Virus record (IMG/VR): IMGVR_UViG_3300044641_000519 | Strand: one strand, 5' to 3' | Length of the DNA: 17,320 nt | Source of the DNA: a virus | Lineage: Duplodnaviria; Heunggongvirae; Uroviricota; Caudoviricetes | Shown: positions 2-17,320 of the stretch, one piece after another | How positions within the stretch are numbered: position 1 is the first letter of the stretch | Layout: the number at the start of each line of letters is the position of its first letter | Made by a program: the position numbers and the translations under genes | The notes under the pieces: generated by a model | What the model saw: the letters and a program-made list of their open reading frames with translations, nothing else | The model's database searches: none | Told to the model about the DNA's origin: nothing

Positions 2-310
2 TGCAATAGCAGCTTGTTTAGCTAATGATTTACCAGACTTAGCCATTTTCTTAGCACCTGCAATTCTATCTGCTTGTGTAGGATTAGGGTTTTTGTCAAT
101 ACCAGCTTTCACTGATAACATACCAAATGCTCCCCCCTTTTCAGCCTTAGGAGCTTTCTTCTTAGCCATAGCAGCTTTACCAAATACACCAGACTTATCT
201 AGTTCTTTAGCTTGCTTATCTCCAATCTTATCAATTGCAGACTTTTTATATACTTTACCAGTCATTTCACCTGGAACCATTTTACCAGTTTGAGCTTTCT
301 TCATTTTCAT
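2..310 (-). CDS. Lys/Ala-rich small basic phage protein (3'-truncated by window edge; not in ORF track)
   Basis: Hand translation from ATG at 310: MKMKKAQTGKMVPGEMTGKVYKKSAIDKIGDKQAKELDKSGVFGKAAMAKKKAPKAEKGGAFGMLSVKAGIDKNPNPTQADRIAGAKKMAKSGKSLAKQAAIA..., open to the window edge; same composition and strand as neighbours. Confidence 0.8.
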   Translation of the reverse strand, partial: MKMKKAQTGKMVPGEMTGKVYKKSAIDKIGDKQAKELDKSGVFGKAAMAKKKAPKAEKGGAFGMLSVKAGIDKNPNPTQADRIAGAKKMAKSGKSLAKQAAIA

Positions 311-329
311 TTTATAAAGATTTTAATTT

Positions 330-749
330 TTAACATTTCCATTTACGTAAAGACTTATTGATTCTACTATTAGGATCATTAGCAGTCTTAGAACTTGTAA
401 GTTTCTTTTTCATACCACTCATCCTAGCACAGAATGATTTCTTTCTAGGACCACCTTCAGGTTGTGGAGCTTTAAGACCTGGCTTACCTGGGTTAGCTCT
501 GTTATAAGAGGCTCTACCTTTTGCATTGAGACCACCTGAAGGATTCTTGCCTTCTTTACGTTGCCAAGCTGGTGAGCTTCCACCATTCTTTAATGATGTA
601 CCATCTTTTTTAATTAGATGACCATTAGGAACAGGAGTAATAGAACCCTTAATAGGACTTAGAGTGTCCCCATTTTTAAGGACTCTCTTACCTACATAAG
701 CTTCAGCTTTCTGTGGGTTGTAAACTTTTGTCTTAGGTATTCTAGCCAT
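330..749 (-). CDS. Basic phage protein with C-terminal conserved domain (DUF6321-like, from recall)
   Basis: Start moved to MARIPKTK (ATG 749, one base after the upstream TAA at 751-753). C-terminal AWQRKEGKNPSGGLNAKGRASYN...RKKSFCARMSGMKKKLTS...DPNSRINKSLRKWKC resembles a family common in aquatic tailed phages. Confidence 0.75.
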   Translation of the reverse strand: MARIPKTKVYNPQKAEAYVGKRVLKNGDTLSPIKGSITPVPNGHLIKKDGTSLKNGGSSPAWQRKEGKNPSGGLNAKGRASYNRANPGKPGLKAPQPEGGPRKKSFCARMSGMKKKLTSSKTANDPNSRINKSLRKWKC

Positions 750-750
750 G

Positions 751-921
751 TTATTTAGCTTTACGCTTTGCAGCAATCTTCTTGAATGTCTTAGCTAATA
801 CTTTAGCCTTTCCTGTACAACCAGGTTTAGTGATAGGTGTACATTTGCCTTCTGTACCTCTAGCCTTAATAGACTTAGATACTTTCTGCATCCACTTGCC
901 ATCTTTTTTAGCTGTTGCCAT
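751..921 (-). CDS. 56-aa basic protein with two Cys (KCTPITKPGC)
   Basis: Start moved to MATAKKDGKW (ATG 921, TAA-C-ATG junction with upstream gene); Lys-rich. Confidence 0.75.
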   Translation of the reverse strand: MATAKKDGKWMQKVSKSIKARGTEGKCTPITKPGCTGKAKVLAKTFKKIAAKRKAK

Positions 922-922
922 G

Positions 923-1267
923 TTATTTCTTTTTAGACTTAAGTTTAGGAGCCATCTCACCACTACGCTTTTCTATTAATTCAGATTCACGCTTTAATGC
1001 TGCTTTTCTGAAACTTGCTGGATTCACTTCTTTTGTAGCAGCTTGTTTCTTATTAAGACCAAATTGCATTTCAGAACGTCCATTCTTTGCCATCTTAGTA
1101 GCACCAAGTTCTTTATCTTTAGTTAACTTAGCTTTGCCTTTAGCACCTGCTAAGGTAGCTTCTTGAACTTTAGTCCAAGCACCCTGAGGGTCAATAGGGC
1201 CTACACGCTTATCAGAAGCTTTCATTCCTGAAAGACTACCCATTCTGTCTTTTTTTACAGTTGCCAT
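923..1267 (-). CDS. Small basic hypothetical phage protein
   Basis: 114-aa ORF; TAATG overlap with upstream ORF at 1267; Lys-rich with MAKNG motif. Confidence 0.8.
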   Translation of the reverse strand: MATVKKDRMGSLSGMKASDKRVGPIDPQGAWTKVQEATLAGAKGKAKLTKDKELGATKMAKNGRSEMQFGLNKKQAATKEVNPASFRKAALKRESELIEKRSGEMAPKLKSKKK

Positions 1268-2432: not shown

Positions 2433-2858
2433 TTAGTCTTGAAAGATGTCAAATGATAACACTCCATCAGGACATAAATTATTTTTTACTGATAAAGGAA
2501 CACTTAATTGTACAGTGGTTGCATTTACAGCTGAATATGTTCCAAACGCTCTAGTTTCTTCATTACTATTAAGAAGATCAATTAGTTCAGTCATATTTGC
2601 TGCACCTTCTTGTGTAAAAACTGTAGATATATCTTCTTCATCACATATCATTATAACAGAGACAAACGTTAAAGGAAATGCTGCTGGAATAGTATCTGTT
2701 ATCAATGTAGGAGCAGGATTACAACACTCGTTTGCATCTATCTCTTGCCAGTTACCTACTTGTGGTTTGAATCTTTGTAAGATCAAACTACCTGCAATGA
2801 CACGTCCTGTACCATCGTAACGTACATATGCTTTTAATCTATTATTGCTATTTGCCAT
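2433..2858 (-). CDS. Module-B protein, long form (conserved N-terminal module + ~90-aa globular domain)
   Basis: N-terminal RLKAYVRYDGTGRVIAGSLILQRFKPQVGNWQEIDANECCNP is paralogous to the N-terminus of 2871..3122. Confidence 0.85.
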   Translation of the reverse strand: MANSNNRLKAYVRYDGTGRVIAGSLILQRFKPQVGNWQEIDANECCNPAPTLITDTIPAAFPLTFVSVIMICDEEDISTVFTQEGAANMTELIDLLNSNEETRAFGTYSAVNATTVQLSVPLSVKNNLCPDGVLSFDIFQD

Positions 2859-2870
2859 GTTTATTTAAGT

Positions 2871-3122
2871 TTAAGTAGGTTGAGTAGTAGTTGTAGTAGT
2901 AGTAGGAGTAGCAGTCGTAGTAGTAGTTGTTGTACTTGTACTTGTGCTTGTACTACTTGTAGTAGTTGTAGTAGTTGGATTGCAGCATTCATAAGCTGGA
3001 ATCTCTACCCACTTACCCACTTTTGGTTTCTTTCTTCTTAAGATTAGGCTGCTTGGAACGATTCTTCCAGTACCATCAAAGCGTACATAAGCTTTGAGAG
3101 GGCGATTGTCAATTGAGGCCAT
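2871..3122 (-). CDS. Module-B mini-protein with poly-Thr mucin-like tail
   Basis: RPLKAYVRFDGTGRIVPSSLILRRKKPKVGKWVEIPAYECCNP followed by 34 residues, 30 of them Thr/Ser. Confidence 0.85.
   Translation of the reverse strand: MASIDNRPLKAYVRFDGTGRIVPSSLILRRKKPKVGKWVEIPAYECCNPTTTTTTSSTSTSTSTTTTTTTATPTTTTTTTQPT
2874..2975. repeat. Degenerate GTA/GTT trinucleotide tract encoding poly-Thr/Ser
   Basis: gtagttgtagtagtagtaggagtagcagtcgtagtagtagttgttgtacttgtactt... on + strand; mixed ACN codons on the coding strand. Confidence 0.9.
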
Positions 3123-4345: not shown

Positions 4346-5104
4346 TTATCCTATTTGTGTTACTGTTAAAATTATTGATGGTATATCTGGATGAACAGGA
4401 GCGACTCCTACTGGTTCATGTGCAAGTGTTACAGCATTATCCACGTTACTATCTATATGCCAAGCCAGTTGAAATGTATTTCCTGCACCAGCATCTACTA
4501 AGAAGTTCCAAGCAGCTACAATATATACTGAGTTACCTGGGAATGATATATAACTAGCAGAAGATGGCACATCTACACCATTTTTTCTTAACCATATTGT
4601 TGCTCTTGTAGCACTATTGCCAGTAGTACTTACCATCTGAGCACTAAATTGTATATTATATTTTCCAGCGTTTGCTACAGTAATTAATGTAGGATTACTA
4701 GAACCATCGTTTGTTATACTTACACCATTACTCAAATCTGTATTACCAAACTTCATAAACAATACAGTAGCACGTGGTCCAGTTTGATCAGTTACATCAT
4801 AAAACGAACCATAATAAAGACTAGATGCTCCACTAATACCAGATGTACCAGAAAACCCTGTTGTACCTGATGTACCAGCTTGACCTGATGTACCAGCTGT
4901 TCCAGCTGCCCCACTTGTACCTGATGTTCCAAAGGTAGCACCACTAGTACCACTAGATCCTGTAAGTCCAGAAGTACCTGAAGAGCCAGAGCCTCCAGAT
5001 GTACCACATGCTACTATACAACCTATCCCTTCTATCTGTTTAGAGATTTCCCACAACAGGTTATCAGTTGTGCCCCATCCTATCTGTCTACTTGGTATCG
5101 CCAT
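4346..5104 (-). CDS. Fibre/decoration-like protein: module A + Gly-X-Y (GTS) collagen-like stalk + C1q/TNF-like beta-sandwich head
   Basis: MAIPSRQIGWGTTDNLLWEISKQIE; 20 Gly-X-Y triplets; C-terminal YGSFYD...GKYNIQFSAQ...IWLRKNGVDVP...AAWNFLV...PSIILTVTQ typical of C1q/BclA-CTD-like heads. Confidence 0.75.
   Translation of the reverse strand: MAIPSRQIGWGTTDNLLWEISKQIEGIGCIVACGTSGGSGSSGTSGLTGSSGTSGATFGTSGTSGAAGTAGTSGQAGTSGTTGFSGTSGISGASSLYYGSFYDVTDQTGPRATVLFMKFGNTDLSNGVSITNDGSSNPTLITVANAGKYNIQFSAQMVSTTGNSATRATIWLRKNGVDVPSSASYISFPGNSVYIVAAWNFLVDAGAGNTFQLAWHIDSNVDNAVTLAHEPVGVAPVHPDIPSIILTVTQIG
4823..5005 (-). repeat. Gly-X-Y (mostly Gly-Thr-Ser) coding repeat
   Basis: Residues 34-94: 8 triplets, a single Phe insertion, then 12 triplets; no Pro. 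Confidence 0.9.
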
Positions 5105-5111
5105 AATCTAA

Positions 5112-5141
5112 CAAAGATATGTTACTTTTTAATATTAACAA
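5112..5141 (-). promoter_or_regulatory. Bacteroidota RpoD-type promoter (TTG-N19-TATCTTTG)
   Basis: Minus strand TTG (5141-5139), 19-nt spacer, TATCTTTG (5119-5112); 7 nt upstream of ATG 5104. Confidence 0.7.
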
Positions 5142-5197
5142 TGAGTATCAATAATTTACAATAACAAAATTAGTTAAACATGTTTTAACTTTTTTAG

Positions 5198-6406
5198 TTA
5201 TAAATTTACCTTGCTTCCAACCACTGCAAAGAACAACATTGGTATGCTAGGATTTGTGCTAACACTAGTCTTTAGTCCTGTGTTAAACTTGAATCTTTTT
5301 GTAATTGAGTAGTCCATATTGAAGCCTGTAAGGAACATCATATCTTCACTTATTTCAAAGGTGTTATCCTTTATTCCATATGTTACAGGGCTCCCAGAGA
5401 TATATAGGTCAGGAGATATGGTCAGTCTTCTGTTTATAGTGAAAGGTTTTGTGTAAAACACTAACAATGAATGAGTTGTAGTGAACTGTTGTTCTGACTT
5501 CTGAATACTCACTGTAGCATTTATACCTGTCACTCCCCACTTTCCTAGTGGATATATTTGTGCATAGGTTAGGAAACCAAATGTATTTCCAAACGCATGC
5601 ACTAATGTGGCACCTGTGTTATCTATTCTATATAGTTTACCTTCATCAAAGTTCATTTTGGTATAGCGTCCACTAAGAGCAAACTGCTGTAGATTACTCC
5701 ATACCATACCTGTGAGTCCCCAACTTACATCCCCAGCCATAGATGTTTGTGATATACCTGATGTAACTATGAGCTGTACTGAGTTATCTAATGTTTGTCC
5801 TGCTGTAAGATCAGAGTTAAATAGTATAGGGTTCATTTTAGCTTGACCTTTTGCTCCCCCTTTACCACCTGACTTACCCCCTCCCCCCTTGCTTTCAGAT
5901 TTGCTTTCAGATTTAGATTCTCCTGAAGAACTTTCAGAAGAGCTAGACTCAGAACTTCCTCCTCCACCTCCACCACCACTGTCTCCTCCTGAGCTTGTAA
6001 CAGATCCACTAGCACTTGATGCTGCAGCACCTGCAGCTGAGCTAGCAGCAGAAGAGGCAGCTGAACTTACAGCCCCACTAACAGCACCACTTACAGCTGA
6101 TGAGACAGCAGTTGCTGTAACAATTGTAGCAGTTTGTGCTGCTTGAGCCACTGAACACGCAGAAAACTTTTTATATTCTTCGAAAGCTTGACTGATCCAG
6201 GCTTGAAGAGCCCCACTATATACATCACTAGCTGTAAAACTTTTAGATTTATTATAAATAACAATAGTGGTAGAACCAGTAATAGGTATACTAAAGACAC
6301 TTGTAACTTTTGTACAAGGATCTGTCCAAGTTTGTATAATGGTTTGAGAATACCCATATAATGGTAGTATAACTACTGTTATTAGAATAAATATAAACTG
6401 TTTCAT
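5198..6406 (-). CDS. Exported protein: signal peptide, small 2-Cys domain, Ala/Ser/Gly-rich linker, predicted outer-membrane beta-barrel
   Basis: Signal peptide ending YGYS-Q; C-terminal ~210 aa of amphipathic strands rich in G/Y/F, ending FFAVVGSKVNL. Confidence 0.65.
   Translation of the reverse strand: MKQFIFILITVVILPLYGYSQTIIQTWTDPCTKVTSVFSIPITGSTTIVIYNKSKSFTASDVYSGALQAWISQAFEEYKKFSACSVAQAAQTATIVTATAVSSAVSGAVSGAVSSAASSAASSAAGAAASSASGSVTSSGGDSGGGGGGGSSESSSSESSSGESKSESKSESKGGGGKSGGKGGAKGQAKMNPILFNSDLTAGQTLDNSVQLIVTSGISQTSMAGDVSWGLTGMVWSNLQQFALSGRYTKMNFDEGKLYRIDNTGATLVHAFGNTFGFLTYAQIYPLGKWGVTGINATVSIQKSEQQFTTTHSLLVFYTKPFTINRRLTISPDLYISGSPVTYGIKDNTFEISEDMMFLTGFNMDYSITKRFKFNTGLKTSVSTNPSIPMLFFAVVGSKVNL
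5840..6154 (-). repeat. Low-complexity coding tract (AVSS/AVSG/AASS, poly-Gly, SSES, ESKS repeats)
   Basis: Residues ~85-189 of the 402-aa protein; includes a tandem tgctttcagatt duplication near 5890-5915. Confidence 0.85.
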
Positions 6407-7119
6407 TACTTTGTGAAGATACCTTTCTTCACCATTCTATCCAAGATTCTAGCACAAGCAATATCTAGAGCCTTCTTTGTAGCAATAGATATAGTTGATT
6501 GATTAAATTTTACAGGATCTAGACTTGCGTCTGACAATCCTGAAGTTTCTTTAGTTGTTTTAGCATCTCCTAATCCAGAGCCAGAGAACACAACACCTGT
6601 CTCAGCATCTGTAAACCTCACCTGAAGACCAATGCGTGTCACCATAAGCTGGCTTGTTGCTAGCTTTGAGCTCACTGTTTCATCTTCAGAGATAGAATAG
6701 TCATAGCATTCAATAGTAACAAAGTATTTAGCTAAGTTTATCTTACCACGTCCATCTAGTTTGTTCTCAGATATTCCAGCAGCTGATGCTTGGAACTGCT
6801 TTACCATTCTGTTCTTAATCTCAGTCTTATCTTCAGTGAACTTAAATCTATTTAGATTCTCTAAGTATTCCATAGATATATTAGCCACCCCTAATCCTAC
6901 ACGCTTCTCTTTAAGCTCAGGATACATTTCATACATTTCATCTGATATACCACACTTCAGGATTTGGATAGGAATTTGAGGTCCTTCGTAATCCAGGAAG
7001 TCAGAAATGTCAATAGACTTCTCAAAGCTAGCTTTATACTGCTCTGTAGAAGTCTTTGCCAATTGACTATTTACTGCTCCAGAGAACAGTAAACAGCCTA
7101 TAAGAATTAAATATTTCAT
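6406..7119 (-). CDS. CsgG/HfaB-like exported protein
   Basis: Signal peptide ending AVNS-Q; LGVANISMEYLENLNRFKFTE...GKINLAKYFVTIECYDYS...TRIGLQVRFTDAETGVVFSGSGLGDAK resembles the CsgG pattern (RF.++ER; G.+..A.Y++; +.+.+R++D..TG.++). No lipobox seen. Confidence 0.7.
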   Translation of the reverse strand: MKYLILIGCLLFSGAVNSQLAKTSTEQYKASFEKSIDISDFLDYEGPQIPIQILKCGISDEMYEMYPELKEKRVGLGVANISMEYLENLNRFKFTEDKTEIKNRMVKQFQASAAGISENKLDGRGKINLAKYFVTIECYDYSISEDETVSSKLATSQLMVTRIGLQVRFTDAETGVVFSGSGLGDAKTTKETSGLSDASLDPVKFNQSTISIATKKALDIACARILDRMVKKGIFTK

Positions 7120-7718
7120 TATTCTTTGATTTTACCACAGTGAATACACTCATAGTCTCCATCATGATCTACATCTGCAAACACATGATCACATTGTCTG
7201 TGAGCTTTGATTTCATGTTCAAGCTTAAGTTTCTCCATCTCTTGCTCATGTTCTTGCTCATCAATCTCAAGAGCTTGTCTGTGCTCTTGTTCATCACGAG
7301 CGATCTCATGCTTTTGTTTATTCTCTGTAACAGCTAAGTCTCTAGCTGCAGCAGCACCTTGGACAAATGCATCAGGGATAGTTGGAGCTACAGGTTTATT
7401 GCTCTCTTTCATGTCATTGGTGTGAGACAGTGTAGTACCATCTTCCTCATCCATCTTCTGTACAAGCATCTTATCTTTGTCAGTATCACTAAACCAGTAG
7501 TCTATAATCTTACCATAGCTACCAATGAAGGCACCTAACATCAATAGTAATAACTCCTTCCATTCTGCAGCAGCAGAAATGTTATTGTTAAGAGCCATGA
7601 ATATACCAGCTATAATTAATATAAATGATCCTAATACTAAGGCAGTGATATACCACCTACGTAACATCATTGATCCTAAAAGTTCTTTAAAACCTGAAGG
7701 CTGTTGAGGCTTGTCCAT
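7119..7718 (-). CDS. Two-TM membrane protein with acidic coiled coil and C-terminal Cys/His motif
   Basis: Hydrophobic segments WYITALVLGSFILIIAGIFMAL and LLLLMLGAFIGSYGKIIDYWF; DEQEH repeated twice; ends CDHVFADVDHDGDYECIHCGK. Confidence 0.8.
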   Translation of the reverse strand: MDKPQQPSGFKELLGSMMLRRWYITALVLGSFILIIAGIFMALNNNISAAAEWKELLLLMLGAFIGSYGKIIDYWFSDTDKDKMLVQKMDEEDGTTLSHTNDMKESNKPVAPTIPDAFVQGAAAARDLAVTENKQKHEIARDEQEHRQALEIDEQEHEQEMEKLKLEHEIKAHRQCDHVFADVDHDGDYECIHCGKIKE

Positions 7719-7819
7719 ATGTTTGCAATTGTTTCTTGGTTATTTTTTACTAGCTCAGCTTTCTTTACACCAGATCTCCTAGATCTTTGAGCTTTTGGTT
7801 TGTTTTTCTTCTGTGCCAT
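7676..7819 (-). CDS. 47-aa basic peptide (not in ORF track)
   Basis: MAQKKNKPKAQRSRRSGVKKAELVKNNQETIANIWTSLNSLQVLKNF*; starts 3 nt after the upstream stop, fills the gap and overlaps the next start by 43 nt. Confidence 0.6.
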   Translation of the reverse strand: MAQKKNKPKAQRSRRSGVKKAELVKNNQETIANIWTSLNSLQVLKNF

Positions 7820-7822
7820 GGC

Positions 7823-8125
7823 TTACCATTTTGGAGCTTCTTCTTTAAACTCATCTCCTTCTTTCTTCTTTACAGGAGCAGGTTTAGCTGCAGCTTCTTT
7901 TTCTTTAATGATGACAGTCTTACCACCACCTGCAGCTTGTTGTTGAGTTTGTGAGTTAGTAATGTTAATTACTGGAGCTGCTTGTTGTACAGGAGCAGCT
8001 TCATCACCACCTCCTGTTAATTTATTAGTTACAAAGCCACCTACACCTAGTGTAACTGTGCTTACTAACGTTATGATAATTCCTTTAAAGGATTTACCAG
8101 TTGATTCTTCTTGTTCTTCTGCCAT
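7823..8125 (-). CDS. Single-TM protein with Gln/Ala/Pro-rich disordered tail
   Basis: IIITLVSTVTLGVGGFVT hydrophobic segment followed by AAPVQQAAPVINITNSQTQQQAAGGG. Confidence 0.8.
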   Translation of the reverse strand: MAEEQEESTGKSFKGIIITLVSTVTLGVGGFVTNKLTGGGDEAAPVQQAAPVINITNSQTQQQAAGGGKTVIIKEKEAAAKPAPVKKKEGDEFKEEAPKW

Positions 8126-8130
8126 GTTAA

Positions 8131-8487
8131 TTATTTTTTAATAGTTATTTGACGTTTGTATTCTTTACCAAAGATATCAATAAGTGTAACTGTGTAGTCT
8201 CCAGAATTAATATCTGAGTAGTCTAACTTCTTGATTACCATATTGTTATCAGCTGTAAATCCTGTAGCATATTTAACATCTCCCTTTAGATCAATTAACT
8301 GAATAGCATATTTAGCCCCTTCAGTTACACTTAATGTAAGTGTTATTGGTCCCTTTGTTATCACTGGTTCCACTCTTTCAATAGCTGTGGAGGTAGCTAT
8401 CTTACCCAAGCTAATCTCAGGTGTTGGTTGCACTTTTGTACAACTTGATATTATAAAAACGATACAGCAGATTATTATATTTCTCAT
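8131..8487 (-). CDS. Lipoprotein consisting of a single T9SS type-A CTD-like domain
   Basis: Lipobox IISS-C; PVITKGPITLTL...IQLIDLKGDVK...KKLDYSDINSGDYTVTL......KRQITIKK fits the T9SS CTD pattern (P....+.+ / +.++D+.G / +D+S.L..G.Y.+.+ / .K+++.K). Confidence 0.7.
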   Translation of the reverse strand: MRNIIICCIVFIISSCTKVQPTPEISLGKIATSTAIERVEPVITKGPITLTLSVTEGAKYAIQLIDLKGDVKYATGFTADNNMVIKKLDYSDINSGDYTVTLIDIFGKEYKRQITIKK

Positions 8488-8488
8488 A

Positions 8489-10186
8489 TTAAAAGTTGTT
8501 ATATCCTGTTAATTTAATTTGTGTTGTGTTCAAGTTGATTCCTAATTGGTTACCAGACATATCTGAAGCATCCATGTTAGAAGTTACTTTGATATATGAG
8601 TTGATACCTAATCCATTTTGTAATGTAGAAAACAAAACTTTGAATGGTATACCTTTTGTGTAAGGAGTTTTTAATTCTTTATCTACAGCTCCAAATTTAA
8701 TTCTGCCTGGTCCACGTGAAGCAAATACTAACCACACTGGTACATCTGTTGTAACAGACTCAAACTTCACTTTGGTTGGGTCATATACAAACTCAAACTG
8801 CAGTCCTGATAAGTTAGCACCTTTGCCATCTACAGCAACTGGTACAGTGAATTCGTTACTAGTAACAGTGATGTTATTCAAACTCACATCTATAGATGTA
8901 ATAGGGTTAGGTGTATTCACAACTGTTGATTTTAAACTGAAGGACTGTATTGTTCCATCAGGCTTAACTACCTGTGAGCTATGTGATCTATTAATGTCTC
9001 CAGGAATTAAGTACTTAAGGTTTAAATCTTGAGCCACTGTAGATGTCTTAAATCTAGTTCCATATAAGTTAGCCTGCTTCCAATATGCTGGTGTTAATGT
9101 GTCGTATTCACTATCCAATAACATAGGAATATTATACAATGTTTGACCAGGTGTAGCTTTTACCACTGTATCAACTCCAATCACTTGTGCAAATAAAGCT
9201 GTAACATCATTGCCATCAAATGCTTTGTTCATTATAATGTCAGAAGCAATCCAGCTAGCCCCTGTCTTTATATTTACATTAGTAAATGTACCATCTAAGT
9301 TCTGTTTAATAAACTCATTTTGAGCTGCTGTATAATCAGAGATGGTCACAGCTTTATTTAAGTAAGAAGGTATACTATCTGTAGGTATTGTAGCAAACAC
9401 ATTATATACAGTGTTAGGAGTTAGTTCAGATCCCAAGAAGAATGTACCATTGTTTGCTGGTACCATTTGTGCTTTGACAATACCTGTAGCTGAATCTACA
9501 AACATTATTTTAGGAACTATACCATTTATATCTACGTATCCATTTACTAATGCATTAGAACTAGGTATAGGTGTTATCCAAGAATTGCGAGGCTTAGGCA
9601 TAAATACTGTAGACAAATTGTTATACTGATTAGTATAAGCTTGTGCAGCATTAAAGTATACAGAGTCATAAGCAAATCCTGCACTTACATTAACCACTTT
9701 AAATCTTAAATATGCAAGATCACCATCTACAAGATTAGCAGTAGAAGCAGTGTTAATCCATATACGATTAATAGCTTTGTTAGAGGACTGGTTATAATTG
9801 TATTGAGCATAGTTGAAATTTGTGAGACCATTTGTAGTTGTGTTGTTTGGATTCTTTACAAACGTATATCCAGGATAGTACTGGTTTTGAAACGTAGCTG
9901 TAGCTCCTTGAGGAAGAGCTGAACCTTGATTACCTGCTTTTGGAAACACAATGTCTATAAAACTAATAGCAGTGTATTGGTGTTCAAAGTCTAAGTAGAA
10001 AGATCTTGCTGAAGAACCATTATTCTTATAAGCAAGAGCTAACTGCACTGTATCTCCTTTTGCAATCACCCCACCACGTATATCAACGTTTTGTTCTGTA
10101 GGTGTGAGCCTTAGTTCTGTTATTTGTCCGTAAGAAAATGTTACAATTATTTGAAAAATTGTAACAAAAAATAATAGTTTATTCAT
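8489..10186 (-). CDS. Exported cohesin-domain protein with degenerate dockerin-like motifs
   Basis: Signal peptide ending FSYG-Q; C-terminal FTVPVAVDGKGANLSGLQFEFVYDPTKVKFESV is a classic cohesin signature; N-terminal GDTVQLAL...GDLAYLRFKV is also cohesin-like; central SDIIMNKAFDGNDVTALF and PGDINRS are dockerin/EF-like. Confidence 0.7.
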   Translation of the reverse strand: MNKLLFFVTIFQIIVTFSYGQITELRLTPTEQNVDIRGGVIAKGDTVQLALAYKNNGSSARSFYLDFEHQYTAISFIDIVFPKAGNQGSALPQGATATFQNQYYPGYTFVKNPNNTTTNGLTNFNYAQYNYNQSSNKAINRIWINTASTANLVDGDLAYLRFKVVNVSAGFAYDSVYFNAAQAYTNQYNNLSTVFMPKPRNSWITPIPSSNALVNGYVDINGIVPKIMFVDSATGIVKAQMVPANNGTFFLGSELTPNTVYNVFATIPTDSIPSYLNKAVTISDYTAAQNEFIKQNLDGTFTNVNIKTGASWIASDIIMNKAFDGNDVTALFAQVIGVDTVVKATPGQTLYNIPMLLDSEYDTLTPAYWKQANLYGTRFKTSTVAQDLNLKYLIPGDINRSHSSQVVKPDGTIQSFSLKSTVVNTPNPITSIDVSLNNITVTSNEFTVPVAVDGKGANLSGLQFEFVYDPTKVKFESVTTDVPVWLVFASRGPGRIKFGAVDKELKTPYTKGIPFKVLFSTLQNGLGINSYIKVTSNMDASDMSGNQLGINLNTTQIKLTGYNNF

Positions 10187-10644
10187 TATAGTAGTTTGTT
10201 AACCAATGAGTTACATGCTTTCTTTAAAGCTGTGGATAGATTCTGTTGGTTAAATTTACCTCCCTCATCTATCAATAAGGTGGACATACTTGTTTCATCT
10301 GCAGACTCTTCTATGAGAGCCTTCTTAATCACCTTACCATTTTCATCAATGATAGTTCCATATAATCTGATAACTACTGACTCTTTGTTCTTATGCATCA
10401 CAGAAAAACTAGACTGTGTTTTCAATACGTCTAAGTAGACAATATCAATATCTAATCTTTTGTTTGAGTTGTGATCAATGTCATAGTTTTTATCCTGTAG
10501 GATTTCTTCTACAATGTTCTTTACACCAAACTCTAGTTTGCGATTGCCTGCAACAGCACCAATCTTCACCTTATTGGTAACATTACCAATAGCTATAGAT
10601 GGTGTTTGCCACCACAGTGATAATATTAATAATAGATGTATCAT
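10186..10644 (-). CDS. Short CsgG-like exported protein (paralog of 6406..7119)
   Basis: Signal peptide ending SLWW-Q; RKLEFGVKNIVEEIL vs RVGLGVANISMEYL, and KFNQQNLSTALKKAC vs KFNQSTISIATKKALDIAC. Confidence 0.7.
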   Translation of the reverse strand: MIHLLLILSLWWQTPSIAIGNVTNKVKIGAVAGNRKLEFGVKNIVEEILQDKNYDIDHNSNKRLDIDIVYLDVLKTQSSFSVMHKNKESVVIRLYGTIIDENGKVIKKALIEESADETSMSTLLIDEGGKFNQQNLSTALKKACNSLVNKLL

Positions 10645-10646
10645 TG

Positions 10647-10775
10647 TTATCTGCCCTGTCTGTTGTAAGGTTTAGTTGCTTTGTCCTTAGGACCTTTAAA
10701 CTTTTGTGCTTTACCACCTTTGCGTTTTCCAAATGTGATCTTTTTAGCACTTGCTGCTCCTTTTGCTTTTGCCAT
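10647..10775 (-). CDS. 42-aa basic peptide ending YNRQGR (not in ORF track)
   Basis: MAKAKGAASAKKITFGKRKGGKAQKFKGPKDKATKPYNRQGR*; fills the gap between the endolysin and the short CsgG-like gene; end resembles the Y-x-x-Q-G motif of tiny basic phage proteins. Confidence 0.75.
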   Translation of the reverse strand: MAKAKGAASAKKITFGKRKGGKAQKFKGPKDKATKPYNRQGR

Positions 10776-10781
10776 GTTGGT

Positions 10782-11381
10782 TTATGTTAATAGTGAAAAA
10801 TACTCTTTGAAATGCTTGATACGATCAGCAAGACCAATTGTACCACCATTTACTCTTTTAGTAATCATTGTTACAGCAGCATCTGTAGCTCCTGTATCTG
10901 CAATCTTATTCAATCCATTCTTACTCCAGAACCAAGCAGCTGATGCTAATGCAAACTCTGTAGCTACAAGATCAGGAGTCTCTTCAATTGGTTTGCCTAT
11001 AGACTTACCAAATGCTGTATAGTTATCACGTCCAGTTAATTGAATGTATCCTCTACCTCTAAACTTAAAGCCATCACCACTAGCTTCATTACCATTACCC
11101 ATTCTACCACCATACACTCTATTAGCAATCTTCTGTGGTTTCTTAGCATAGTCAAGAGCTATAGCTTCACTAGGGAAGTATTTCTTGAATATACCCTGCA
11201 GACCTTTGGCTGAGTAGTTTAGGTTTTCATTAGTGATTCTAAATCCACCAGACTCGTGACCACATTGTGCTAGGAAATGAGACAAGCGTAGGGGTGTATT
11301 CACTCCAAACTTATCTTGTATCCCAGGTATTTGTTCAATCACTTTATCTGGTACGTGACCTTTTAATTTATTTAGATCCAT
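10782..11381 (-). CDS. Glycoside hydrolase family 19 endolysin
   Basis: RLSHFLAQCGHESGGF, ENLNYSA, ANRVYGGRMGN, GFKFRGRGYIQLTGRDNY, ASAAWFW, TKRVNGGTIGLADR are GH19 phage lysin motifs. Confidence 0.93.
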   Translation of the reverse strand: MDLNKLKGHVPDKVIEQIPGIQDKFGVNTPLRLSHFLAQCGHESGGFRITNENLNYSAKGLQGIFKKYFPSEAIALDYAKKPQKIANRVYGGRMGNGNEASGDGFKFRGRGYIQLTGRDNYTAFGKSIGKPIEETPDLVATEFALASAAWFWSKNGLNKIADTGATDAAVTMITKRVNGGTIGLADRIKHFKEYFSLLT

Positions 11382-11547
11382 CTTTTTTCTTTTTGGTAGG
11401 TTTTTTCTTAGGTTTACTTTTAGGTTTAACTTCTTGAGGTTCTACCTTATATAAAGCTTCTTCTATTTGTTTGTCTATTTTCTCAACAGATTTAACATGT
11501 TCTTCACGTTTAGCAAACAATGACTTAATAAATAATAAAATGTTCAT
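11368..11547 (-). CDS. 59-aa protein with N-terminal amphipathic segment and Lys/Pro tail (not in ORF track)
   Basis: MNILLFIKSLFAKREEHVKSVEKIDKQIEEALYKVEPQEVKPKSKPKKKPTKKKKDGSK*; starts 1 nt after the upstream stop and overlaps the endolysin start by 14 nt. Confidence 0.75.
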   Translation of the reverse strand: MNILLFIKSLFAKREEHVKSVEKIDKQIEEALYKVEPQEVKPKSKPKKKPTKKKKDGSK

Positions 11548-11548
11548 G

Positions 11549-12148
11549 TTATTTGATTTTCCAATAAGAACTTATGCCATAGTTTAATTGACTACCTATG
11601 GTTGAGCCCACGTTGAATCCAACGATTTTATCTTTCTTAGACTTGTAAAGAATGCCAAGATGAGCACCTGTTACACCTAAGGTTTGGTTACCTTGTACAC
11701 CACCACCAAAGAACAATGCTGCTTTAGGAGGAGCATAGTTTGTAATAGTGTTAGTGATAGTTATTGTAGGAATCTTATAGTTAGATCTTACAGAACGTCC
11801 TTTGATATTGTTCTGGTTCACAGTGTCTGTAATAGCTACATAACCAAGAGTGTCCAGTCTAATTGTATCTTTAAACTCTACAAGAGCCATATACTTACTT
11901 AACAAATCCTTATACTGAGCTAAAAGCTTAGGGTAGTTTGTGTCAGCTATATACTCTGGAGGAGTGGCAACAGTATCATGTAACACTTTGCCTTTCAATG
12001 TTTTATAAATAGTTGTGTCATGTACAGACCATGTTGTATCATGTACAGTTACTGTATCAGACTTTTGATGTCTAGGACTGCAACCATTCTTAGAGAAGGC
12101 TACATAAAGCACTAAGACAACTATTATACCAGTTAATAATTTATTCAT
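11549..12148 (-). CDS. Membrane-anchored lysis-cassette protein, candidate spanin
   Basis: N-terminal hydrophobic helix followed by NGC; HDT repeats; C-terminal Gly-rich amphipathic beta-strands ending YWKIK; adjacent to endolysin and holin candidates. Confidence 0.5.
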   Translation of the reverse strand: MNKLLTGIIVVLVLYVAFSKNGCSPRHQKSDTVTVHDTTWSVHDTTIYKTLKGKVLHDTVATPPEYIADTNYPKLLAQYKDLLSKYMALVEFKDTIRLDTLGYVAITDTVNQNNIKGRSVRSNYKIPTITITNTITNYAPPKAALFFGGGVQGNQTLGVTGAHLGILYKSKKDKIVGFNVGSTIGSQLNYGISSYWKIK

Positions 12149-12383
12149 TACCTTTTGTTTTGTTTATCCACTTGTCTACAGATGCTATACCAAAACAAGC
12201 TATTGTTAATATCTTGAATGAGTCAAATATAAACTCATTAACTAACAGTGGTTTGTTCATAGCCCCTGTAACAATATCTGCTACAGCAAATATGATCATC
12301 ATAACAAAAGCTGCAAATCCAATTACAGCCTTCTCATTGATGGAATTATTGTCATCAAATAGATCAGAAAAGAATTTCTTCAT
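12141..12383 (-). CDS. Two-TM holin-like protein
   Basis: Start moved to MKKFFSDLF (ATG 12383; 80 aa); two hydrophobic segments and a charged C-terminus; in the lysis cassette. Confidence 0.55.
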   Translation of the reverse strand: MKKFFSDLFDDNNSINEKAVIGFAAFVMMIIFAVADIVTGAMNKPLLVNEFIFDSFKILTIACFGIASVDKWINKTKGNE

Positions 12384-12693
12384 TTTGTTTGTTTTTAATT
12401 GTTGTTCTATTGTTAGGTAGGATGGCAAATGTTTCAAACATTAACTCTTTATCATGCTCATTAAAAGGCATAGAAGCTGTTCTCTTATATACAAGTCTTT
12501 CTAGATTATCTATACGTGTCTTGTCTACATTAGATTGAGCCATTAAGGCTTTGACATCTGACTTTACCTCAGCTAAGTCATCTTTGATGTCTTTTAACAT
12601 CATACCAGCAAATATCCCAATGATTGTAACCACACCAGGAAATAGCCAGTTTTTAATTTCTGCAATAACAGAACTCTGTTGTTTTGTCGTCAT
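12364..12693 (-). CDS. Single-TM plus coiled-coil protein (lysis-associated candidate)
   Basis: Start moved to MTTKQQSS (ATG 12693; 109 aa); WLFPGVVTIIGIFAGMML then heptad-rich KDIKDDLAEVKSDVKAL...IDNLE. Confidence 0.7.
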   Translation of the reverse strand: MTTKQQSSVIAEIKNWLFPGVVTIIGIFAGMMLKDIKDDLAEVKSDVKALMAQSNVDKTRIDNLERLVYKRTASMPFNEHDKELMFETFAILPNNRTTIKNKQNEEILF

Positions 12694-12783
12694 TATAATA
12701 AGTTGTAGAAATAAAAATACACCCAGGACATGGATGTACAATATGGTCAGGACGACCTATTTAGGTTAATATCTAGTTCACTG

Positions 12784-12815
12784 CAAAACTAAGTAAAAAA
12801 GTTGAAACTACCAAA
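12784..12815 (-). promoter_or_regulatory. Bacteroidota RpoD-type promoter (TTTG-N20-TAGTTTTG) heading the lysis/export operon
   Basis: Minus strand TTTG (12815-12812), 20-nt spacer, TAGTTTTG (12791-12784), in the intergenic gap upstream of ATG 12693. Confidence 0.72.
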
Positions 12816-13249: not shown

Positions 13250-14176
13250 ATGAAACCAGTTTGTTTAAATCTGGAAGAATGCAATGGATTGGGTGACCTT
13301 CTCTGTGCCACCCCCACTATCAAAAAACTTCATGACTCCTATCAAAAAAAGATAACCATCATCTCTCAGATGCCTGAGTTGTTTAAGATGAATCCATATG
13401 TAGAGAAGAGTTATAAGAGCAGCTCTGTAGATATGACGTACATACAATGTAATTACATTGTACATAATTCATTCTACTTAGTAGGTAAAAAGGACGAGCG
13501 TGGTATAGAGATGAAGCACAACATGATGGATATCAGACAGTTCCATGCTATACATCTAGGATTTATGCTTACTCAAGATGAACTAGAGTGTCACTACAGA
13601 CCTATAGAACAACAAGTTAATCATATAGAAGGTAAGTATGCTGTGATACATCCTGTTAATAGCTGGCCTAATAGAACCTGGTCTCAAGATAACTGGCTTA
13701 ATTTAGTTGATGAACTAATCAAATGGGGATATAAAGTGGTAGCTGTGGGTAAGGATAGCTCTGAGACAGGGTTCTTTAATGTAGACAAACCTGTACATGA
13801 GATGAATGATAAGGTGATTAACCTGATGAATCAAACATCTATCTCTGAGACTTGGCACTTGATTAACAATGCTGCAGTTGTTATCACTATGGATAGTGGC
13901 ATCCTACACTTAGCAGGTACAACCAACACTAATATTGTTGAACTAGGCTCTCCTATCAATCCAGAGTTTCGTAGACCATATAGAAAAGAAGGCAAACATA
14001 TATACGTAAGAGGAGGATGTGGATTACATTGTTCATCCAATATGAAATATGCTCTTGAGTATTGGGACACTATAGACTCTGTGCAACCATTGATAGGATG
14101 TTTAGAGAAGAAAGAAACATTTGAATGTCATCCATCTGTAGCTCAGGTTATTCATTCAATTAATACCAACTTATGA
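13250..14176 (+). CDS. Glycosyltransferase family 9 (ADP-heptose:LPS heptosyltransferase-like)
   Basis: GLGDLLCATPTIKKL, VIHP...WPNRTW, LMNQTSISETWHLINNAAVVITMDSGILHLAGT are GT9 signatures. Confidence 0.88.
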   Translation: MKPVCLNLEECNGLGDLLCATPTIKKLHDSYQKKITIISQMPELFKMNPYVEKSYKSSSVDMTYIQCNYIVHNSFYLVGKKDERGIEMKHNMMDIRQFHAIHLGFMLTQDELECHYRPIEQQVNHIEGKYAVIHPVNSWPNRTWSQDNWLNLVDELIKWGYKVVAVGKDSSETGFFNVDKPVHEMNDKVINLMNQTSISETWHLINNAAVVITMDSGILHLAGTTNTNIVELGSPINPEFRRPYRKEGKHIYVRGGCGLHCSSNMKYALEYWDTIDSVQPLIGCLEKKETFECHPSVAQVIHSINTNL

Positions 14177-16818
14177 AAAAATTATTAATCATTACTCCTC
14201 ATCTATCAACAGGAGGAGCTCCACAGGTGACAGTTAATAAGATTGAACTACTTAAGGATAGCTTTGATATCATGGTGGTTGAATGGGAGTGTATAGCCTG
14301 GGCATTTGTTGTACAAAGAAATAGAATCATTAACCTTGTAGGAGATAAGTTTAAGTCTTTAGGAGAGAACAAGAAGACTGAACTGTTGGAAATTATACAG
14401 GAGTTCCAACCAGATGTAATATCTATGGAAGAGTTTCCAGAAATGTTTATGCCTGATGATGTCACAGCACAAATCTACCACAAAGATACACCATGGAAGA
14501 TAGTAGAAACTACACATGATAGTTCCTTCAGACCTGAGTGGAAGAGATGGGCACCTGATAGATTTATATTTGTTAGTCCTTATAACGCATTCAAATACGT
14601 CAACTTAGATATACCAATGGATATAATTGAATATCCTGTAAATAAGAAAGGACGTAATAAAGTGGAGATGCAAAACAAGTTAGGACTAGATCCTAGTTAC
14701 AAACACATTGTCACTGTAGGACTGTTCACTCCTAGGAAGAATCAAGCTTATGCTTTTGAAATGGCTAAAGAGCTAGAGAAATATAAGGTGAAGTTTCACT
14801 TCTTAGGTAACCAAGCTGGTAACTTTGAGTCTTATTGGAAGCCATTAATGCAGAATAAACCAGACAACTGTGTCATCTGGGGAGAGCGTGATGATGTATC
14901 TGAATTCCTACAGGCTTGTGATGTGTTCTTCTTTCCATCTAAGGGAGACAGAGGTAACAAGGAACTTAATCCAATAGCCATCAAAGAAGCTATGGAATAT
15001 GACATAGTTAAGTTAATGTATAACCTAGATGTGTATTGTAACAAATACAATGGTCAGAAGGACATGATGTATTTAACAGGTGACATAACTATTGATACAG
15101 TTAATCTTATGATAAGACTAGACCTAGATAGACTAGACGAGGAGTTAATCATCATAGGTACCTATCCTAATCTAAAGGAGCGTGTTAACTTAACTAAGAA
15201 AACCATAGAGTCTATGAAGTCTCTAGGTAGAAAGATTATGTTAGTCTCACACTACCCTGTAGACGATGAGATTCAACGTATGGTAGATTATTACATCTAT
15301 GATGCACACAACCCACTCACTCATCACAGCTATTACACAAAGTTTTATAATGATACTTCTAACTACTATGCTGAGATAAACATCAATGGACTTAAGGATA
15401 CCAATCAGTCTCTTACAGTGTTAACTAATATGTACAATGGATTTAAAGCTGCTAAACAGTTAGGATACAAACGTGTGTTCTATAATACATATGATGTTAT
15501 TGTAGATCTTAGAGACTTACAGATGATAGAAACATCATTTGCTTCTGGTAAGAATGCATACTTAGCTACACTTCCTACACCTATGGGTAAAGGAATTCAG
15601 ACTAATGGAATGATGTTTGATATAGACTACTTCCTTAATACATTTGATGACACAGCTGACGCAAAAGAATACAATAGAATCTGTGAGCAAATAGGAGCTC
15701 AGAACTTCTTAGAGGATTATCTATCAAAAAGAATCAATGATGATAATGTAGAAATAGTTACCAATGAGCAAGAAACATTACTAATCCATAGTGGCTTAGG
15801 CACATCTTCTAACAGTGAGTATTATTCTATTGTTCCAATTGTTGGAAAACCAAACAATTATATGTTCTATTTCTTTACATATAATGTAGACCACAGAACT
15901 ATATATGTTACTATAGGAGATGTAGACAAAAGAATCCAAGTGGCTAAGACTAGAGAATGGATGTATCCTTTTAAGTTTAATGGAGATCCAATTGATATAC
16001 AACTAGACTTCTACGATGGAGATCATTGCTACAAAATAGAGAAGTATAACCTAAACAAGAACAATCTAGATAAGTATCAAAGCACAGGTAGGTTTGAATT
16101 CAAACAGAAAGATAGACCAAGAATAAAATTAGTTCACATACAAACTACATTAAACGATGAAAGAGAACAAGCCAGTAGAGCATCCCTTGAACAAGTCAAA
16201 GACCATGGTTGGGAATACAGGTTACACCTTAACAAGCCCTATAAATCACTACCACCATCATACAACTGCATTAGACCAGATTGTGTTTCAATGGAACTCT
16301 TCAATGAACAGCAAGTTCAACAGTATGGTACTGCACTTACCCCAGCACATTATGGATGCTATCAAGCATTCAGAGATGCCATCCTAAGTGAATTTCATGA
16401 TTGTGATTTCTTAATAGTGTGCGAAGGAGATTGTATCATTGAGACAGACATACACAATTTCATACGAAAAGTTGAGGAATGTGCACACTTATTAGTACCA
16501 AACAACATAGAGTTTATGTCATTTGGTGATAAGGATACATTAGAACATGGCTGGCCTCAGAGCCCTGAGGTAAGAAAAATCAATGATGTAATGTATGAAA
16601 CCAACCACATTATTGGTTTACAATGCATCATGTTCCCAGCTCACATAGCTCCATGGTTAAAAGAAACATTACGTAAAGAACCTTGGGATGCTGCAGATAT
16701 GTATTTCAACATTATATTTAACAACCAAAAGATGGGTATTGTATATGAAAGACTCACCACACAAGCAGATGGGTTTTCATTAATAGACAACATGGAAAAA
16801 TCATTCATAAAGAAATGA
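14173..16818 (+). CDS. Multidomain glycosyltransferase: GT4-like GT-B + GT-A-like domain + GT25-like domain
   Basis: N-terminal STGGAP...TVGLFTPRKNQ...FLQACDVFFFPS...ELNPIAIKEAM (GT4); middle IIIGTYP...IMLVSHYP...YNTYDVIV; C-terminal HYGCYQAF...LIVCEGDCII...GLQCIMFP...AADMYF (GT25-like). ATGA overlap with the GT9 gene. Confidence 0.8.
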   Translation: MKKLLIITPHLSTGGAPQVTVNKIELLKDSFDIMVVEWECIAWAFVVQRNRIINLVGDKFKSLGENKKTELLEIIQEFQPDVISMEEFPEMFMPDDVTAQIYHKDTPWKIVETTHDSSFRPEWKRWAPDRFIFVSPYNAFKYVNLDIPMDIIEYPVNKKGRNKVEMQNKLGLDPSYKHIVTVGLFTPRKNQAYAFEMAKELEKYKVKFHFLGNQAGNFESYWKPLMQNKPDNCVIWGERDDVSEFLQACDVFFFPSKGDRGNKELNPIAIKEAMEYDIVKLMYNLDVYCNKYNGQKDMMYLTGDITIDTVNLMIRLDLDRLDEELIIIGTYPNLKERVNLTKKTIESMKSLGRKIMLVSHYPVDDEIQRMVDYYIYDAHNPLTHHSYYTKFYNDTSNYYAEININGLKDTNQSLTVLTNMYNGFKAAKQLGYKRVFYNTYDVIVDLRDLQMIETSFASGKNAYLATLPTPMGKGIQTNGMMFDIDYFLNTFDDTADAKEYNRICEQIGAQNFLEDYLSKRINDDNVEIVTNEQETLLIHSGLGTSSNSEYYSIVPIVGKPNNYMFYFFTYNVDHRTIYVTIGDVDKRIQVAKTREWMYPFKFNGDPIDIQLDFYDGDHCYKIEKYNLNKNNLDKYQSTGRFEFKQKDRPRIKLVHIQTTLNDEREQASRASLEQVKDHGWEYRLHLNKPYKSLPPSYNCIRPDCVSMELFNEQQVQQYGTALTPAHYGCYQAFRDAILSEFHDCDFLIVCEGDCIIETDIHNFIRKVEECAHLLVPNNIEFMSFGDKDTLEHGWPQSPEVRKINDVMYETNHIIGLQCIMFPAHIAPWLKETLRKEPWDAADMYFNIIFNNQKMGIVYERLTTQADGFSLIDNMEKSFIKK

Positions 16819-17320
16819 AAAGAATAGTTATTATAAGTTGTTACCCTTCTGGACAGAGAGAAGTAGAAATTCTTAATAGATGTATAGAAGGATTTAGACA
16901 TACAGGATGGGACATCATGATTGTTAGTCATCTACCAATTGATGAAACCACTGCTAAGAAAGTGGAATACACCATCTATGATAGTAACAATACATTCCTT
17001 CCTCCTACATACACCCCTAATTGGTGGCTTCAAACAAATGAACATGCCATAAATATATTTAATGCAGGTCATACTCTTCCTATATGTAGAAACATGAGAT
17101 GTGGCATTGGCTTAGCAAAGGCTATGGGATATGATGAGTTTATATTTACAGAGTGTGATGTTCTTCTATCTGAGTTTGATGCAACTAAACTAGTAGGACT
17201 AATGGATGATATGAGTGGCTTAGATAAGAAGATGTTATTCTTTAGACCTGAGGAGTATAGAGACTGTGAAGGCTCTTATGTATATGAGACATTGCTATTT
17301 GGTGGTAACACTACCTTCTT
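16815..17320 (+). CDS. GT-A-like protein paralogous to the middle domain of 14173..16818 (3'-truncated; not in ORF track)
   Basis: MKRIVIISCYPSGQREVEILNRCIEGFRHTGWDIMIVSHLPIDETTAKKVEYTIYDSNN...AKAMGYDEFIFTECDVLL; open to the window edge; ATGA overlap at 16815-16818. Confidence 0.85.
   Translation, partial: MKRIVIISCYPSGQREVEILNRCIEGFRHTGWDIMIVSHLPIDETTAKKVEYTIYDSNNTFLPPTYTPNWWLQTNEHAINIFNAGHTLPICRNMRCGIGLAKAMGYDEFIFTECDVLLSEFDATKLVGLMDDMSGLDKKMLFFRPEEYRDCEGSYVYETLLFGGNTTF

Follow-up and report, generated by a model that had tools for sequence, protein, structure and literature searches.

A block of seven genes, named here M1 to M7, occupies the minus strand of a 17,320-nt stretch of Caudoviricetes DNA (IMG/VR record IMGVR_UViG_3300044641_000519; "the window" hereafter means this whole stretch) and encodes products that are all addressed to the bacterial envelope. 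The open reading frame (ORF) coordinates and the targeting signals agree on both the tight coupling of these genes and their common destination, which a first-pass annotation had read from the sequence. As that annotation also proposed, the block is a conserved phage-borne multi-gene module with predicted inner-membrane, periplasmic, outer-membrane and secreted components. Consecutive genes share a single base at positions 10186 (M1/M2), 7119 (M5/M6) and 6406 (M6/M7), M2 and M3 are separated by 1 nt and M3 and M4 by 5 nt, and one conserved basic micro-ORF lies in each of the wider gaps at 10645-10781 and 7719-7822: m42, kept in 35 related loci at 57-86% identity, and m47, kept in 11 related loci at 48-78% identity. 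M2, M6 and M7 start with signal peptides that can be cleaved before a Gln; the window copy of M1 has only a weak hydrophobic N-terminus, and its relatives carry clear signal peptides, lipoboxes or transmembrane anchors.

The block closes a minus-strand gene string without gaps that runs from ~12741 to 5198 (h125, h98, u199, s59, endolysin, m42, M1 to M7), and a Bacteroidota-type promoter-like element, TTTG-N20-TAGTTTTG, lies directly upstream of h125. On the 3′ side of M7, a second promoter-like TAnnTTTG motif, TATCTTTG, stands ahead of a collagen-like tail-fibre gene that marks the downstream edge of the block (Table 1). An AT-rich hairpin at ~5170-5190, considered as a terminator after M7, folds no better than shuffled sequence (z -0.06) and was dropped.

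Table 1. Positions of the block genes and of other features in the window
Feature	Position	Strand	Size or remark
M1	10186-10644	-	152 aa
M2	8489-10186	-	565 aa
M3	8131-8487	-	118 aa
M4	7823-8125	-	100 aa
M5	7119-7718	-	199 aa
M6	6406-7119	-	237 aa
M7	5198-6406	-	402 aa
m47	7676-7819	-	47-codon basic micro-ORF; fills the M4-M5 gap and overlaps the M5 start
m42	10647-10775	-	42-codon micro-ORF, very basic; lies between the genes for endolysin and M1
Lysis cassette (h125, h98, u199, s59, GH19 endolysin)	10782-12741	-	Upstream in the same gene string
u199	11549-12148	-	Part of the lysis cassette
Promoter-like element upstream of h125	~12784-12815		Motif at 12784-12791
Promoter-like motif 3′ of M7	5112-5119		TAnnTTTG type
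Collagen-repeat tail-fibre-like protein	4346-5104	-	BclA/C1q-type C-terminal domain; own promoter-like motif
Glycosyltransferase cluster	13250-17318	+	Divergently transcribed
Small paralogous gene	2433-2858	-	
Small paralogous gene	2871-3122	-	Product ends in a long Thr/Ser run
Lysine-rich basic proteins	2-1267	-	Three proteins of 103, 148 and 114 aa

The genes of the block are inherited together. Co-occurrence was counted in 46 related viral loci with full flanks, where M1 and M2 stand beside M6 every time, M4 and M7 in 45 cases, M5 in 42 and M3 in 33. Such co-occurrence is far from chance; it extends to distant phages, bearing out the expectation that the genes would recur together in other genomes, and gene order is conserved in related loci even though identity in M2, M7 and M3 has fallen to 23-45%. 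This deep synteny is a matter of direct observation, as are the folds, families and targeting signals of the products. The parts evolve at different rates: M6 is the most conserved gene (median identity 84%), M5 and M4 reach 56-61% overall with long invariant stretches, and M2, M7 and M3 lie at 37-44%, M3, which some lineages lack, being conserved least. Profile searches of the cultured Flavobacterium phage immuto recovered M2 (split over gp014 and gp015), M4 (gp016), M6 (gp017), M7 (gp018) and M1 (gp019) and did not detect M5 or M3. In a marine metagenomic phage, the order is M2, a short M5, M4, M6, the N-domain alone of M7, and M1. In both phages, M1 has shifted from the first to the last position and the block adjoins RecA, exonuclease and DnaB genes, the immuto endolysin lying ~8 kb away. 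Because these copies sit among replication genes, the block is inherited as an autonomous unit, independent of the lysis genes. Its size ranges from 5.4 kb in the window to ~12.6 kb in relatives. The co-transcription with lysis genes suggested at first is therefore upheld in part: the gap-free string behind a promoter motif speaks for it in the window, the surroundings of the immuto and marine copies speak against it, and the linkage of block and endolysin is specific to this lineage.

The window DNA is that of a phage. M6 has 513 relatives in IMG/VR, many of them from viral contigs of ~100-130 kb. With these, the cultured relative immuto and the lack of a cellular genome carrier, the viral assignment holds against the alternative of an ordinary bacterial locus. 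In a single-protein scan of 185,579 species genomes, the block was absent from cellular genomes proper and only two short contigs binned in metagenome-assembled genomes (MAGs) matched M6. Their MAGs bear the labels Thiobacillus and Micavibrio; the M6 copies are 81-89% identical, and the contigs are probably of phage origin and wrongly binned. A near-identity search of cultured phages returned a short endolysin match only. Lake-water metagenomes of at least six studies contain the window DNA. The Bacteroidota -7 motif TAnnTTTG occurs 36 times in the window, against 22.6 expected, and this count was reached in 1 of 200 shuffles. Because of this excess and of the Gln that follows the signal-peptide cleavage sites, a Bacteroidota host fits, and the infected cell would be of the Flavobacterium type. 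Phages bearing M1 to M7 are an abundant lake-water group infecting Flavobacterium-type bacteria.

M6 is a divergent member of the CsgG/HfaB family, secreted without a lipid anchor, as confirmed by its fold and its homologues. Its AlphaFold2 (AF2) model, with a mean predicted local distance difference test (pLDDT) of 81.9 and a predicted template-modelling score (pTM) of 0.74, finds its top solved match in CsgG (6lqh_A; Z 13.3, 179 aa aligned, root-mean-square deviation 3.2), ahead of PelC (Z 10.2), LptE (Z 8-9) and PqiC, which lie in the range Z 8-10. Foldseek also matches CsgG (E 8e-8), the named Atlas neighbours are all CsgG clusters, and in Swiss-Prot the best fold match is the Neisseria meningitidis lipoprotein NMB1126/1164 (E 6.7e-14), HfaB being matched as well. 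The window protein itself has no Pfam match at E <= 0.1; Pfam CsgG (PF03783) is matched by 17 of the 35 aligned relatives (best 3.7e-23), and the profile built from the family matches E. coli CsgG over residues 3-192 (E 0.002). An exhaustive search gathered 201 clusters of relatives, and a public structure library already holds a phage protein automatically named CsgG. The signal peptide ends in GAVNS before the Gln; closely related copies from freshwater phages lack a lipobox, and an LxGC lipobox is present in more distant phage and bacterial homologues. The segments equivalent to the CsgG membrane hairpins (141-163 and 186-206) span 17-23 residues including core strand ends, have acidic tips and are 26-27% charged. 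To judge from the sequence, the lack of a lipid anchor and the shortness and charge of these segments make a pore of the curli type unlikely, and M6 would more likely be a periplasmic CsgG-fold protein than a secretion pore; the outer-membrane secretion pore of the first-pass annotation is thus disfavoured. Among bacterial relatives, five proteins and two loci show the M6 domain fused to a caspase-like peptidase C14 or a Ser/Thr kinase, or encoded beside a peptidase C14/PEGA protein. These fusions and adjacencies show that the M6 domain often acts as a periplasmic module. Single-sequence hhalign found no M7-like protein beside the bacterial M6 homologues. A complex prediction of M7 (22-402) with M6 (20-237) scored 0.00, which amounts to no verdict and weighs neither for nor against binding.

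M1 was taken at first for a second CsgG-like paralog. It appears instead to be a small exported YajG/Lipoprotein_16-like protein, at most a shorter and remote relative of M6, so that of the two proposed paralogs only M6 stands as such. The window protein, which lacks a lipobox, scores 22.3 bits against Lipoprotein_16 (PF03923; cut-off 25, E 1.2e-4), and 19 of 25 relatives match this family at E <= 0.05 (best 7.8e-7). Between the M1 and M6 families, hhalign aligns the C-terminal helix only (probability 29%), and the M6 profile detects M1 of immuto in three colinear segments (E 1.9e-5).

The outer-membrane beta-barrel announced for M7 is supported by its model and structural matches. A signal peptide is followed by an alpha/beta N-domain (~22-81) with two conserved Cys, a linker (~85-190) and a barrel (~194-401), and immuto gp018 has the same architecture. 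The linker is of low complexity, Ala/Ser-rich and then Ser/Glu/Lys-rich, and disordered in the model. The C-terminal domain is confirmed by the model as a barrel of ~12-14 strands: in the AF2 prediction (barrel pLDDT ~70-79), 13 strand segments are seen and no helix adjoins the barrel. Foldseek aligns it with NanC/KdgM, FapF, autotransporter and intimin barrels (E 3e-7 to 5e-5), and the AFDB and Atlas matches are autotransporter, KdgM, PorV/PorQ and PorP/SprF barrels. M7 gave no match to Pfam Autotransporter (PF03797) and does not show the combination of beta-domain and linker helix that defines type Va autotransporters, so that its barrel resembles theirs in structure only.

M2 appears to be a secreted protein in which a region resembling a dockerin Ca-loop (~280-405) precedes a cohesin-like domain at the C-terminus (~430-565). 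Against Pfam Cohesin (PF00963), the window protein scores 22.7 bits (E 1.2e-4), below the cut-off of 24.1; among 28 relatives, 17 match Cohesin (best 4.5e-7), two match Lectin_C and one matches Dockerin_1 (PF00404) at E 0.005. The cohesin half of the cohesin-dockerin assignment therefore rests on the family, the window copy being sub-threshold, and the dockerin half on a loop recognised by eye in the alignment together with that one weak match. By BLASTP, M2 aligns (E 3e-5) with the cohesin part of a marine phage protein for which Pfam Cohesin and Por_Secre_tail are precomputed annotations, so that a genuine type IX secretion system (T9SS) sorting domain is present on this homologue. Profile searches of PDB sequences for M1, M7, M2, M3 and M5 gave nothing useful, the M2 profile reaching weak matches to scaffoldin cohesins (E 0.05). 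A second, N-terminal cohesin-like domain is not claimed, as the internal-repeat matches were weak (E 0.006-0.05 in a tiny database).

M3, to judge from its invariant lipobox Cys16, is a genuine small lipoprotein; its mature part (~100 residues) is beta-rich and probably folds as an immunoglobulin-like beta-sandwich. It had been described as a lipoprotein with a T9SS C-terminal domain, and here the lipoprotein is retained and the sorting domain is not: M3 scores 18.4 bits (cut-off 27) and 13.7 bits (cut-off 23) against PF18962 and TIGR04183, respectively, and Por_Secre_tail is found in 3 of 22 family members, always sub-threshold. Because M3 is a lipoprotein consisting solely of the sorting-domain-like region, it is unlikely to be T9SS cargo, and single-sequence hhalign found no M3-like domain in the marine M2 homologue that bears the sorting domain.

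M4 and M5 are predicted to be very conserved inner-membrane proteins. M4 has one transmembrane segment (15-33), a low-complexity Ala/Pro/Lys/Gln tail without heptad pattern and a nearly invariant C-terminal motif, KKEGDEFKEEAPKW; homologues were found in immuto (E 5e-18) and in the marine phage (E 8.5e-7). M5 combines one scored transmembrane segment with a second invariant hydrophobic stretch, and its N-terminal half (both stretches and SDTDKDKMLVQKMDEEDG) is invariant, with a run of invariant columns at positions 53-94. The C-terminal part is acidic and varies between relatives; it contains a His/Cys cluster, and in most relatives DxDGDG Ca-type loops occur in this region. The marine phage has a short form of 106 aa (E 2e-53). 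M5 has relatives in 6,322 database clusters, every one unnamed, and its look-alikes in the Atlas are viral only.

The genes upstream of the block look like a lysis cassette that is complete by itself. The transmembrane scan gives h125 a transmembrane segment and a coiled coil and the holin-like h98 two transmembrane segments; the endolysin matches phrog_181 (E 9e-75) and Pfam Glyco_hydro_19, i.e., glycoside hydrolase family 19 (GH19); and u199 has an N-terminal membrane anchor, a Cys that is not invariant and a conserved, Gly-rich C-terminal region whose last residues are YWKIK. The u199 gene of some lineages comes directly after M7 and not before the endolysin; its product could be a spanin-like lysis protein. 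Directly after the endolysin gene, m42 may recall the "disruptin" of phage phiKT, a cationic peptide that serves as an outer-membrane lysis factor (bioRxiv 10.1101/515445).

Several parts of the block can be compared with characterised systems, each time with a partial likeness. M6 shares its core fold and its periplasmic secretion with the CsgG/HfaB family (PF03783; E. coli CsgG, PDB 6LQH/4UV3); CsgG is a lipoprotein, as are the distant phage and bacterial relatives of M6, and the window protein differs from it by its sub-Pfam score, its unlipidated N-terminus, its short charged hairpin segments and the absence of CsgE, CsgF, CsgA and CsgB partners. In mature size (218 aa) and best fold match, M6 resembles rather the short uncharacterised CsgG-family lipoproteins of the NMB1126/1164 type. 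An LptE-fold protein beside a barrel is a known theme, exemplified by LptDE and PelBC. M6 and M1 have or resemble this fold and the M6 gene overlaps that of the M7 barrel, but M7, with its ~12-14 strands, is far smaller than LptD (26 strands) or PelB (16), no sequence relation to either is seen, and the window copies of M6 and M1 lack lipid anchors. In its layout, from signal peptide through N-terminal domain and long linker to C-terminal barrel, M7 is like type Va autotransporters and FapF; its best structural matches include FapF and the NalP/EspP translocators (E 4e-7 to 4e-5) as well as a cluster of autotransporters in the Atlas (template-modelling score 0.62). It differs in that no helix is predicted inside or just before the barrel and in that its "passenger" would consist of ~60 residues plus low-complexity sequence. 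M2 resembles cohesin-dockerin scaffolds and T9SS cargo in its cohesin-like C-terminus and dockerin-like Ca-loop, to which the marine homologue adds a T9SS sorting domain and some relatives a C-type lectin domain; the window protein differs in being sub-threshold, devoid of a sorting domain and phage-encoded. With spanins and the phiKT disruptin, the block shares its post-endolysin operon position in this lineage, as well as components predicted in the inner membrane, the periplasm and the outer membrane; it differs in having neither a coiled-coil inner-membrane spanin nor a short proline-rich outer-membrane one, in being many times larger and in being detached from the lysis genes in distant relatives. 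The single parts thus come from known families, and their combination in a phage is uncharacterised in the searched literature, in keeping with the original remark that no characterised system with this gene set was known.

Altogether, these findings lead to a tentative model, to which we give a probability of about 0.4, in which the block encodes a phage-built complex that forms an outer-membrane or surface structure during infection and remodels the outer membrane or the cell surface. The M1 to M7 products would assemble in the envelope of the infected Bacteroidota cell as one autonomous module. M5 and M4 would sit in the inner membrane, M4 with its extended tail and conserved C-terminal peptide; two LptE/CsgG-superfold proteins, the true CsgG-family M6 and the YajG-like M1, would occupy the periplasm; the M7 barrel, tethered by its long flexible linker to a small domain, would lie in the outer membrane together with the lipoprotein M3; and M2 would be secreted as a cohesin/dockerin-type scaffold. 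The resulting structure could alter the surface that the cell presents, e.g., so that further phages no longer adsorb, progeny are not lost on debris or adhesion changes. Cohesin, C-type lectin and T9SS sorting domains are typical of surface-displayed proteins, and barrel insertion requires the assembly machinery of a living cell. Surface remodelling is favoured because the M2 relatives carry such display-type domains, because the putative outer parts change rapidly and the inner ones are under constraint, because the barrel must be inserted by a living cell and because the block sits among replication genes in distant relatives. The pairing of M6 with M7 also has a precedent, since LptDE and PelBC, both represented among the fold matches of M6, pair an LptE-fold protein with a barrel. 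Several points weigh against it. Comparison with the PADLOC models gave no meaningful match to known defence or exclusion proteins, and M2 as encoded in the window lacks a signal for export across the outer membrane. The block comes straight after the endolysin gene in most freshwater lineages; in others, h98, the endolysin or u199 lies within it or just behind it. Metatranscriptome Logan contigs of relatives show the presence of the genes and not their timing or a shared transcript, and the physical assembly, the location of the parts, the timing and the biological role are all things that we infer.

The closeness of the block to lysis genes in these freshwater lineages would also suit a lysis accessory, in which the block would breach or detach the Bacteroidota outer membrane in place of canonical spanins, with M5 and M4 acting in a holin/antiholin-like manner and M6, M1, M7 and M3 acting on the outer membrane. 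Such a role is the main rival to surface remodelling, if a somewhat unlikely one. The gap-free position directly behind the GH19 endolysin and the Bacteroidota-type promoter motif agrees with it, as do the mixing of lysis genes with the block in other lineages, the holin-like size and layout of the short M5 form (~106 aa) and the lack of a recognisable canonical two-component spanin, in line with reports that spanins are seldom found in flavobacterial phages (PMC8776804). Yet M4 and M3 would make a poor spanin pair: M4 has no coiled coil, M3 is beta-rich and unlike the short proline-rich outer-membrane spanin lipoproteins, and no PHROG spanin match was obtained. Moreover, a block of 5.4 kb, reaching 12.6 kb in relatives, is far larger than any known lysis function, its placement amid replication genes in both immuto and the marine phage separates it from lysis, the domains of the M2 relatives fit display and not disruption, and the need for a living cell's assembly machinery disfavours a last-second role for the barrel. 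A curli- or holdfast-like secretion system, in which M6 would form a CsgG-type oligomeric outer-membrane channel exporting M2 or the N-terminal region of M7, seems improbable. It would account for CsgG as the top solved fold match of M6, for the Pfam CsgG matches of its relatives and for HfaB among its matches; it would also give M2 an export route where the window protein has no other signal, and the amyloid exporter FapF is among the top matches of the M7 barrel. It is at odds with a signal of the signal-peptidase-I type, with hairpin segments that are both short, ~27% charged and acidic at their tips, with the peptidase and kinase associations of the bacterial relatives and with a closest fold match to a Neisseria lipoprotein and not to curli CsgG, and no csgE, csgF, csgA or csgB family was found among the scanned neighbouring genes (Pfam, NCBIfam and PHROG).

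We think that the block is neither a curli-like pore nor the lysis machinery itself. The seven genes could still encode no single machine, being separate envelope-directed accessory functions grouped by expression class. The assembly of their products is, after all, inferred, M3 is dispensable (33 of 46 loci), the block grows to ~12.6 kb in some phages, and nuclease, amidase and glycosyltransferase-like genes are inserted within it in some lineages. This reading is nevertheless doubtful, as co-occurrence is near-perfect, the one-base start/stop overlaps suggest translational coupling, and five partners persist, though relocated and reordered, in phages whose M6 is down to 35-52% identity. A more specific proposal, which we regard as conceivable and rather unlikely, is that of a novel envelope-spanning apparatus, in which M5 and M4 would be coupled via M6 and M1 to the tethered M7 barrel and would place or hold the M2 cohesin/dockerin(/lectin) scaffold on the surface of the infected cell, i.e., a secretion or display system without a characterised counterpart.

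Other genes of the window lie outside the block. The divergently transcribed cluster encodes a family 9 (heptosyltransferase-type) glycosyltransferase, a GT1-domain protein of 881 aa and one more open gene; these may be glycan-modifying genes, and they are common to only 1-3 of 80 related loci. Two adjacent small paralogous genes share the N-terminal motif KAYVR.DGTGR...SLIL.R.KPKVG.W.EI.A.ECCNP, with no family match, and one of the three lysine-rich basic proteins carries DUF6321.

For a lytic phage, 5-12 kb of conserved genes directed to the host envelope is a large investment. The phages that carry the block are common in lakes, and the block points to an unstudied step in the way in which Bacteroidota phages handle the outer membrane or the cell surface; candidate steps are the exclusion of competing phages, the adhesion of infected cells and cell exit. 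As immuto carries five of the seven gene families, the question is open to direct laboratory testing.

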